Part shown: positions 48,001-51,000 of the stretch, piece by piece
Layout: each line of letters opens with the position of its first letter
Position numbering within the stretch: the first letter of the stretch is position 1
Sequence record: AP012539
Source of the DNA: Stx2-converting phage Stx2a_WGPS6
Length of the DNA: 57,849 nt
Strand: one strand, 5' to 3'
Position numbers: made by a program

Positions 48001-51000
48001 TGGCGGGAATTGATATGCCGGATTTTGAGCGTGAGGATGACTGGTGGCGTAACGGTCAGAACCTTTACCTGGACAATATGGCGGTCACCGGCTTTTACCG
48101 GGTGCCCCTGTCCTCTGCACAGGCGGGCGATATCCTGCTGTGCTGCTTTGGCGCATCGGTGGCCAATCATGCCGCCATTTACTGCGGCAACGGTGAACTG
48201 CTTCACCATCTGCCTGAACAACTGAGTAAACGGGAGAGGTATTCCGAAAAATGGCAACGACGAACGCATTCAGCCTGGCGTCACCGCCACTGGCACGTAT
48301 CTGCCTTCACGGGGATTTACAACGATTTAGCCGCCGCCTCAGCCTGTATGTGAACACGGCAGCGGAAGCCATCCGGGCGCTGTCGTTACAGGTGCCGGGA
48401 TTCCGCCGTCAGATGAACGAAGGCTGGTACCAGATACGTATTCGCGGTGAGGACACGGCACCGGAGGCGGTGTACGCCCGTCTTCACGAACCTCTGGGTG
48501 AGGGGGCGGTCATCCATATTGTGCCGCGACTGGCCGGGGCCGGAAAGGGTGGACTGCAGATTGTGCTGGGGGCGGCAGCCATCGTGGGCTCTTTCTTCAC
48601 GGCCGGGGCATCAATGGCGTTATGGGGTTCAGCCCTGGCAGCCGGTGGTTTTTCTGCCACCACGATGCTGTTTTCACTGGGGGCCAGCATGATACTGGGT
48701 GGTGTGGCTCAGATGCTGGCCCCGAAGGCTAAAGTACCGGAGTACAAAAGCACGGATAACGGCAGACAGAACACGTACTTTTCCTCGCTGGATAACATGA
48801 TTGCACAGGGGAACCCGATGCCGGTGCCTTACGGTGAAATGCTGGTTGGCTCACGGCGAATCTCCCAGGACATCAGTACCCGTGATGAAGGCGGAGACGG
48901 GAAAGTGGTGGTTATCGGGCGGGGATGAAAATAAAAAAATCCCGCAGAGTTAGCGGAGCTGCGGGAGAGAACGATGAAGATTAACGTTATGGAGTTATTT
49001 TTCAGGCATCAAAAAAGTAATGCAGCGTCATTATTGCGGCTACAGGCAATTGCCGGAAATGTGAAGAGTTTCAGAAATTTTATTCCGTCATGACACAGGC
49101 ACCCTCCGGGGTGCCTGTTGTTTTCTGGCATAAACAGATTCAGACATCAGACAGGAGAGGGGGACAGAGTGGGTAAAGGGGGCGGCAAGGGGCACACGCC
49201 GGTAGAGGCAAAGGACAATCTTAAGTCCACGCAGATGATGAGCGTGATTGACGCCATTGGTGAAGGGCCGATTGAAGGTCCGGTGAAGGGGCTGCAGAGT
49301 ATTCTGGTGAACAAAACCCCACTGACGGACACGGACGGCAATCCCGTGATACACGGTGTGACCGCGGTCTGGCGCGCCGGGGAGCAGGAGCAGACACCGC
49401 CGGAAGGTTTTGAGTCATCCGGCTCTGAAACCGCACTGGGCGTGGAAGTGACGAAGGCAAAGCCGGTGACGCGCACCATTACGTCCGCGAACATTGACCG
49501 CCTGCGGGTTACCTTCGGGGTGCAGTCACTGGTGCAGACCACCTCACAGGGTGACCGTAACCCGGCATCCGTCCGCCTGCTGATTCAGCTGCAGCGTAAC
49601 GGTAACTGGGTGACGGAAAAGGATGTCACCATTAACGGCAAGACCACCTCACAGTTCCTCGCTTCGGTGATTCTGGATAATCTGCCTCCCCGTCCCTTTA
49701 ACATCCGGATGGTCCGGGAGACGGCGGACAGCACCACGGACCAGCTGCAGAACAGAACGCTGTGGTCGTCATACACCGAAATCATCGATGTGAAACAGTG
49801 CTACCCGAACACGGCGATTGTGGGGCTGCAGGTGGATGCGGAGCAGTTTGGCGGTCAGCAGATGACGGTGAACTACCATATCCGCGGTCGCATCATCCAG
49901 GTACCGTCAAACTATGACCCGGAAAAACGCACGTACAGCGGCATCTGGGACGGCAGCCTGAAACCGGCATACAGCAACAACCCGGCCTGGTGCCTGTGGG
50001 ACATGCTGACTCACCCGCGCTACGGCATGGGAAAACGCCTGGGGGCGGCGGATGTGGACAAGTGGGCGCTGTATGCCATTGCGCAGTACTGCGACCAGAT
50101 GGTCCCTGATGGTTTCGGGGGCACAGAGCCGCGGATGACCTTTAATGCGTACCTGTCACAACAGCGTAAGGCGTGGGACGTTCTCAGTGATTTCTGCTCG
50201 GCGATGCGCTGTATGCCGGTATGGAACGGCCAGACGCTGACGTTCGTTCAGGACAGTCCGTCGGATGTGGTGTGGCCGTACACCAACAGTGATGTGGTGG
50301 TGGATGATAACGGCGTGGGGTTTCGCTACAGCTTCAGCGCCCTGAAGGACCGCCACACGGCGGTGGAGGTGAATTACACCGACCCGCAGAACGGCTGGCA
50401 GACCTCCACGGAACTGGTGGAAGACCCGGAAGCCATACTGCGCTACGGGCGCAACCTGCTGAAGATGGATGCGTTCGGCTGTACCAGTCGCGGTCAGGCC
50501 CACCGTGCCGGGCTGTGGGTGATAAAGACCGGACTGCTGGAAACGCAGACGGTGGATTTCACGCTCGGGTCACAGGGGCTGCGTCACACACCCGGTGACA
50601 TTATTGAAATCTGTGATAACGACTATGCCGGGACCATGACCGGCGGACGTATCCTGTCCATCGATGCCGCCAGCCGCACCCTGACACTGGACCGTGAGGT
50701 GACCCTGCCGGAGACCGGTGCCGCCACGGTGAACCTGATTAACGGCAGCGGTAAGCCGGTGAGCGTGGCCATCACTGCACACCCCGCGCCGGACCGGATA
50801 CAGGTCAGCACCCTGCCGGATGGCGTGGAGACATACGGTGTGTGGGGGCTCTCCCTGCCGTCACTGCGTCGTCGCCTGTTCCGCTGTGTCTCCATCCGGG
50901 AAAACACGGACGGCACCTTTGCCATCACGGCAGTGCAGCACGTACCGGAAAAAGAAGCCATCGTGGATAACGGGGCGCACTTTGACGGCGACCAGAGCGG

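Follow-up and report, generated by a model that had tools for sequence, protein, structure and literature searches.

The DNA analysed here, referred to as the window, is a stretch of 57,849 nucleotides from Stx2-converting phage Stx2a_WGPS6 (AP012539), numbered from its first letter and with the strand presented taken as +. The prophage is lambdoid and of the Stx1 type, and around the junction of tail genes I and J it shares 99.7% identity with phage VT1-Sakai. Tail genes K and I lie at 47577-48353 and 48251-48928, respectively, and gene J starts with a GTG at 49170, leaving an I-J gap of 241 bp at 48929-49169. In lambda the same gap is 60 bp long, so that approximately 181 bp are extra in the window. 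An earlier note on this sequence had pointed to an insert without lambda counterpart at this position, holding a 39-codon open reading frame (ORF) and two hairpins, one of them read as a terminator of the minus strand. The insert is real and conserved and both hairpins were confirmed; the headline reading of the ORF as a gene was wrong, and overall the interpretation offered there is partly supported.

The left hairpin, placed by the earlier note at 48941-48965, forms an intrinsic terminator on the minus strand (48966-48933), in which an 8-bp stem (48966-48959 with 48947-48940) closes an 11-nt loop and is followed by seven uridines at 48939-48933. It folds at -13.2 kcal/mol (z -3.7), a stability reached by 3 of 200 shuffled sequences. 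The right hairpin belongs to the + strand, where an intrinsic terminator is predicted at 49095-49126. Its stem at 49095-49118 was measured as a perfect 10 bp, with the 4-nt loop UCCG and the U-rich tail UGUUUUCU, the sequence directly after the stem being TGTTTTCT; at -23.1 kcal/mol (z -4.8) it was matched by none of 200 shuffles. Both hairpins exceed chance, while the ORF does not.

Upstream of the left hairpin on the minus strand is a predicted sigma-70-type promoter, with the sequence AATAAT as -10 box at 49035-49030 and a -35 position at 49058-49053 whose sequence in this allele, TTCCGG or TCCGGC, is weak. Transcription from a promoter with this -10 box would run for about 80-90 nt, up to the hairpin 48966-48940 and its U7 run. 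With the start taken 7 nt after the -10 box, the predicted small RNA (sRNA) is 91 nt long (49023-48933, minus strand) and has a fold energy of -20.3 kcal/mol (z -4.1) in the window allele. The 3' end lies within the U-run 48939-48933 and the 5' end is uncertain, from about 49010 to 49023. The prediction for every allele falls within 90-103 nt, and as the published lengths of 83-85 nt are 6-15 nt below prediction, the true 5' end may be up to about 15 nt further downstream.

An RNA from this locus has been seen in two pathotypes under different names. Tree et al (2014; Mol Cell, PMC4104026) reported 'orphan' Hfq-crosslinking (CRAC) peaks in E. coli O157 Sakai. One of these, EcOnc22 of prophage Sp15, was assigned to the Sakai + strand, was present as a peak in three datasets, measured about 85 nt by Northern blotting and was destabilised in delta-hfq; EcOnc23 (Sp14) and EcOnc24 (Sp11) were named as homologous to it. 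On the Sakai record now in use, the three map to the I-J gaps of Sp15, Sp14 and Sp11, all of which are 100% identical to the gap in the window, with the strand and the position between I and J also the same. Since Sakai has its tail genes on the - strand and the EcOnc peaks on the + strand, the RNA is antisense to the tail genes. The window prophage is set apart from those of Sakai by an antirepressor gene between L and K and by an intact J.

The coordinates of Tree et al (2014) refer to an older genome version and are 142 nt below those of NC_002695.2 for AsxR and AgvB1 (1.27 and 1.94 Mb), the anchor for AsxR being its stated position 282 bp 3' of stx2B. At the three Sakai I-J loci the offset is 135-137 nt, anchored by a fragment that Waters et al (2017; PMC5286369, supplementary file 9) list in their RNase E-CLASH tables, in which the EcOnc22 part of a hybrid read is GCCTGAAAAATAACTCCATAACGTTAATCTTCA. 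This published in vivo RNA fragment, GCCUGAAAAAUAACUCCAUAACGUUAAUCUUCA, matches the minus strand of the window at 49007-48975 in 33/33 nt. Because the fragment fixes the offset, the Hfq-CRAC peak of EcOnc22 can be placed at about 49010-48950 (minus strand), covering the RNA body and the 5' arm of the left hairpin. An Hfq peak on the right hairpin, which came from using the 2014 coordinates uncorrected on NC_002695.2, was rejected.

PasB of EPEC E2348/69 is an 83-nt minus-strand RNA at NC_011601 1466343-1466261, with a change of -6.8 log2 in delta-hfq and 37 RIL-seq interactions (Pearl Mizrahi et al, 2021, Sci Adv; PMC8550237, Table S6). Its locus is the I-J junction of prophage PP6 and aligns with the window over the full length; the RNA is annotated as ending on the final uridine of the U7 run, and the Northern probe used for it, AATCCCGCAGTGATCGCGGAGCT (PMC8550237), matches the homologous terminator hairpin of the family. 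The Hfq-dependent PasB, of about 83 nt, thus has in common with the window its locus, orientation, terminator stem, U7 run, the block upstream of the promoter and the + strand hairpin. Nevertheless the alleles are distinct: the mean column identity across the gap is 84%, PasB has the stronger promoter (TTCACA-16-TATAAT), and its RNA body is different where pairing would take place, CCUUCACAUUGAUCUUC as against CCAUAACGUUAAUCUUC.

Given the identity of the gap with those of Sakai, the perfect match of the CLASH fragment and the presence of PasB at the equivalent junction, the insert is very probably the known, published gene of the Hfq-dependent sRNA EcOnc22/PasB, lying on the minus strand against the late operon. 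With the same high confidence it can be described as a small 'moron' that Stx-type lambdoid prophages have in their tail operon. This analysis and the cited papers show, on identical sequence, that such an RNA exists, comes from the minus strand, crosslinks to Hfq and RNase E, needs Hfq for its stability and is about 83-85 nt long. Judged by their sequences, EcOnc22-24 of EHEC and PasB of EPEC are one sRNA family; the parts of the two groups' texts that were available contain no statement linking the names. The I-J element is thus already described in the literature, although it is without annotation in databases: Rfam gave no match at the I-J locus at either gathering or permissive thresholds, and none of the RefSeq/GenBank records inspected annotates an sRNA there. 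The identity therefore rests on the tables of the papers.

Two sets of relatives were used to examine which parts of the gap are kept. The first consists of 14 diverged I-J junctions (72-88% identity) taken from phage records and aligned, the second of 139 copies, with 65 different sequences among them, drawn from phage records and from contigs of IMG/VR and compared on the minus strand; the IMG/VR copies had been retrieved with a pattern drawn from the upstream block. Among the 139 copies the -10 hexamer is TATAAT in 70, AATAAT in 31, the window included, and TATCAT in 27, and the -35 position reads TTCACA in 84, with a spacer of 16 nt that is variable in sequence; in most alleles the promoter is a strong one. 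A consensus promoter scanner called TTCACA-16-TATAAT on the minus strand of the PasB allele with 11/12 matches, where 0.3 would be expected, as well as both terminators; in the allele of the window it called none.

Apart from the terminator the sRNA has no consensus structure, and there is no conserved fold in its 5' two-thirds. Across 25 alleles, standard pairs are found in 95.9% of the cells of the stem as against 26-65% when the partner is slid, while the loop varies in sequence and in length, from a few nucleotides to 17. There is one clean double change, from G-C to A-U in a single allele, so the support for the terminator comes from a stem kept beside a varying loop and not from covariation. 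From the 5' end, the body of the sRNA consists of a conserved GCGUUA at the predicted start, a U-run (49016-49011), an A-rich (ARN)3 tract AAAAAUAAC (49002-48994), a CUCC motif that resembles an anti-Shine-Dalgarno sequence, an allele-specific stretch, which in the window is CCAUAACGUU on the minus strand, the block UUAAUCUUC (48984-48976), the terminator and its U-run. The ARN motif is a site for the distal face of Hfq (Tree et al, 2014). The tract is kept in other alleles as AAGAAUAAU and AAAAACAAC, and it and the U-run are candidate sites of contact with Hfq. The UUAAUCUUC block is the most conserved part within the sRNA, both in the profile and in the alignments; being single-stranded and immediately 5' of the terminator, it is the candidate seed region. 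It coincides with the seed proposed for PasB, just upstream of the terminator, by Zhu et al (2026).

Directly upstream of the -35 position is a conserved block (49083-49057, minus strand), with the consensus GAATAAAAwTTCTGAAwwTCTTCACATTT over the 139 copies, which may be the site of a regulator. Its constancy in the IMG/VR set is by construction, since that set was fetched with the block pattern; the BLAST-collected set is free of this selection, and there the block is present in 15/15 junctions, is constant save for three positions and is the best conserved part of the gap. The conserved TTCACA within the block was rejected as a sigma-70 -35 element, being 24 nt from the -10 box. Inside the block, at 49060-49075, is a CRP-like core, TGTGA-N6-TCAGA, agreeing with TGTGA-N6-TCACA at 9/10 core bases and the sole such match in the window. 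Its centre is at about -44.5 from the predicted start, off-register with respect to -41.5 or -61.5, and at least one core was found in 25/100 shuffles, so that a CRP site here is a lead only. PasB levels in overnight LB exceed those in DMEM, and it is this, together with the core, that makes CRP the best guess for a regulator. In a speculative extension, to which we attach a low probability, the block 49057-49083 would be the operator of a host regulator, possibly CRP, by which the sRNA reads the nutritional state, the allele-specific bodies would address different host targets and the late transcript would serve as a perfect sponge on induction. If true, sponging of the sRNA by the late transcript would tie the physiology of the lysogen to the lytic switch.

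The right hairpin, which lies between the sRNA promoter and J, is predicted to be a Rho-independent terminator of the + strand, separate from the sRNA. Its stem, ACAGGCAYCC/GGRUGCCUGU, changes at one position from C-G to U-A via U.G intermediates across the alleles, and (U/C)GUUUU is always found 3' of it in the family. About a third of the copies have a longer module with a different GC-rich hairpin in its place. In lambda, where I and J are homologous to those of the window, the 60-bp gap likewise has a GC-rich hairpin, ACCGCC-TGCG-GGCGGT, followed by the T-run TTTGTCATTT at the equivalent position just upstream of J; it has no sRNA gene, sRNA promoter or conserved block. A + strand hairpin of this kind therefore appears to be an older part of the junction, to the left of which the sRNA gene would have been inserted. 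Late transcription antiterminated by Q would pass through it.

Whether the functional product might instead come from the + strand was considered for both an RNA and a protein. In the former case an sRNA from the 3'UTR of gene I would end at the hairpin 49095-49118, and the block 49057-49083 would be its Hfq-binding 3' module. The hairpin and its U-tail are preceded by AUUUUAUU, which resembles such a module, and together with the block the hairpin is the best conserved part of the gap. The RNase E-CLASH data (PMC5286369) contain one sense-strand chimera, annotated as ECs2945 3'UTR, so the + strand is transcribed at some level; and Tree et al (2014) filtered out sense-strand Hfq peaks within 100 bp of a coding sequence. 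This sense-strand evidence is, however, a single read, and no + strand promoter is conserved or was detected by the scanner. The third of the family that swaps the hairpin module yet keeps the block argues in the same direction, fitting the block as part of the minus-strand promoter, and in lambda the hairpin occurs without the block. A + strand sRNA as the functional product is thus improbable.

The ORF of the earlier note (48974-49093, + strand) is present as described, with an ATG start, and if translated would give a protein of 39 residues from an mRNA ending at the 49095-49118 terminator. The ORF, an SD-like GGGAG and the downstream terminator all exist, and the annotator of phage PhiR12_5 called a 32-codon ORF at the equivalent place. 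The comparison of I-J junctions suggested by the earlier note goes against it: the stretch homologous to the ORF has in-frame stops in 14/14 of the diverged relatives, a length that is no multiple of three in 12/14 and an ACG in place of the start in 5/14, so that the frame is kept in none, and no ORF common to the 14 junctions was found on either strand. A + strand ORF of at least 39 codons occurs in 34% of dinucleotide shuffles of the gap, or in 16% with ATG starts only, and a Pfam search with the 39-codon ORF gave no match. What had been taken as a good ribosome-binding site, the GGGAG 6-7 nt before the ATG, is the 3' arm of the left hairpin, whose stability is about -13.2 to -14 kcal/mol. 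Conservation of the gap is concentrated on the RNA and promoter features rather than on codons. With the frame broken throughout, its length that of chance, no Pfam match and its ribosome-binding site part of a terminator stem, the ORF is rejected as coding: it is an incidental frame that runs opposite to the sRNA gene and its promoter and is intact only in the allele of the window, and the gene at this position is the published sRNA on the opposite strand. Translation of a micro-protein from it is accordingly very hard to credit. A type I toxin-antitoxin pair was likewise rejected, the ORF not being conserved and its peptide, MKINVMELFFRHQKSNAASLLRLQAIAGNVKSFRNFIPS, having by inspection no hydrophobic helix.

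As to function, the unstructured 5' body, the U-rich and ARN tracts and the terminator with its U-tail are arranged as in a trans-acting sRNA that works by base pairing. Such an RNA, made in the lysogen, would act in trans as a regulator; that it pairs with host or phage mRNAs is inferred, as are the exact start site and the seed region. In the presumed pairing region the alleles differ. The CLASH hybrids of EcOnc22 are with yjbJ (nt 132 of the coding sequence) and ECs5349, with one or two reads each (PMC5286369), and a 2021 review gives the targets as unknown. Pairing of the sRNA with yjbJ in RNAduplex ran meaninglessly over the full length and was discarded.

Being antisense to the late operon, the RNA could also act in cis, by pairing with the I-J intercistronic part of the late transcript and triggering its cleavage or dampening J, or the sRNA could itself be titrated by abundant late transcript once lytic growth is under way. 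The two RNAs are perfectly complementary, the gene is antisense within the late operon in every copy, and the position is highly conserved, with conserved synteny reported for PasB (Zhu, Shabalina and Storz, 2026 preprint). The sense strand is moreover transcribed and bound by RNase E, as seen in the ECs2945 3'UTR chimera. Such an interaction is possible, but as the main function it is opposed by the RNA body, in which the alleles differ most and whose variation a pure cis role would not need. About 150 nt also separate the end of the paired region from the J start codon downstream, trans partners are seen in RIL-seq and CLASH, and dependence on Hfq is typical of trans-acting sRNAs. We therefore regard a primarily cis-acting role as unlikely. 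The insert might, finally, be neutral filler or a decaying remnant without function, as the weak -35 of the window allele could suggest and as the earlier note would have concluded had it been absent from all relatives and shown no signal of translation. It is carried by 802 of 5426 complete E. coli genomes, or approximately 15%, often in several copies, and by 130-145 phage records. Its -10 box, terminator stem, U-run and upstream block are kept beside a freely varying loop and spacer, and the RNA is expressed and bound by Hfq in two pathotypes, leaving this reading with almost no probability.

The genome counts are for megablast matches to the allele of the window, with a median of 3 and a maximum of 9 copies per matching genome, and the phage records are nearly all of Stx-converting or related lambdoid phages. 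In a collection with one genome per species, matches to an exact 23-base pattern were E. albertii and three tiny contigs from unrelated genera, the latter probably contamination; a scan of this kind says little beyond the restriction of the insert to Escherichia. The sRNA is multicopy, Hfq-dependent and widespread, being encoded within the tail operons of prophages of the Stx and related kinds; its importance is modest. With neither an Rfam family nor an annotation in the records inspected, it will go on being 'rediscovered' in genome scans as a gap that contains a micro-ORF. Useful to those working on these RNAs would be that EcOnc22-24 and PasB form one family, that alleles differ in the presumed pairing region and that an invariant block lies upstream of the promoter.

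Other prophage sRNAs resemble this one in part. AgvB and AsxR (Tree et al, 2014) are, like EcOnc22, encoded by prophages, bind Hfq and have a conserved terminator module at the 3' end after a 5' part that varies. They differ in being 51-60 nt long, in sharing a 42-nt 3' region and in occupying the PR' moron site next to the stx and lysis genes. The I-J RNA was rejected as an anti-sRNA of the AgvB/AsxR type, given its different locus and the lack of any shared 3' sequence, and the Rfam models for the two (RF02702, RF02703) gave no match at the I-J locus. PasA, PasC and PasD were rejected as counterparts, being located in the Q/PR' region. HnrS (EcOnc10/11/12; Poudyal et al, 2026, PLoS Pathog) is similarly multicopy and Hfq-associated, comes from the late region of Sakai prophages and ends at an intrinsic terminator; it too was rejected, its locus being in Sp9, Sp10 and Sp12, its length 66 nt and its target hha.

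Roughly one third of the family of I-J sRNA elements (L120, L124 and related loci such as L020, which is PPompW_699) carries a module, lying between the sRNA promoter block and J, that is about 100 bp longer. The hairpin in this longer module is a different one, AAAACCCCGGTATC-TGC-TGATACCGGGGTTT, and as it is flanked by A-rich and T-rich runs it looks bidirectional. A partial second copy of the conserved block is seen 5' of a variant unit in the IMG/VR contigs L028, L043 and L082. The terminator of this unit differs and no -10 box is recognisable within it in these contigs, an arrangement that suggests tandem units, either duplicated or decaying. 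In lambda itself, a T-run follows a GC-rich hairpin within the I-J gap (ACCGCCTGCGGGCGGTTTTGTCATTT; lambda 15445-15504), and this hairpin is not known to have a described function.

On the J side of the gap, tandem copies of the heptamer TCAGACA occupy 49140-49153 on the plus strand, immediately 5' of the J ribosome-binding site. The number of copies varies amongst the phages, with two in the window, three in the compared locus L040 and four in Stx2 phage 1717. J itself (49170-52663, plus strand), as compared with the loci L002 and L001, is intact, whereas in Sakai Sp15 it is divided into two CDSs, ECs_2943 and ECs_2944, and in strain PV15-279 it is annotated as frameshifted.

Further upstream, between tail genes L and K, lies an ORF of 334-348 aa (46515-47561, plus strand) that matches PF10547 (E 1e-39) and PF10548 (E 1e-24) and is a P22-type antirepressor. 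This ORF is absent from Sakai Sp15, where L directly abuts K. The antirepressor ORF is a second moron within the tail operon.

Several other RNA elements in the window were matched by Rfam. On the plus strand these are STnc100 (24752-24963), which is related to PasD (Zhu 2026), isrK with the C4 antisense RNA and the a1b1 targets of C4 (18707-18905), one of two copies of sRNA-Xcc1 (19433-19516) and three tRNA genes (23095-23341). The other copy of sRNA-Xcc1 (2913-3001) is on the minus strand, as is an ALIL pseudoknot (9583-9699), which marks where frameshifting occurs in an IS3-family element and therefore places an IS inside the prophage.

The coordinates in the published Sakai tables (Tree 2014, PMC4104026; Waters 2017, PMC5286369) fall below those of the current Sakai record, NC_002695.2, by 142 nt in the range 1.27-1.94 Mb and by 135-137 nt in the range 2.17-2.90 Mb, so that naive look-ups hit the wrong feature.
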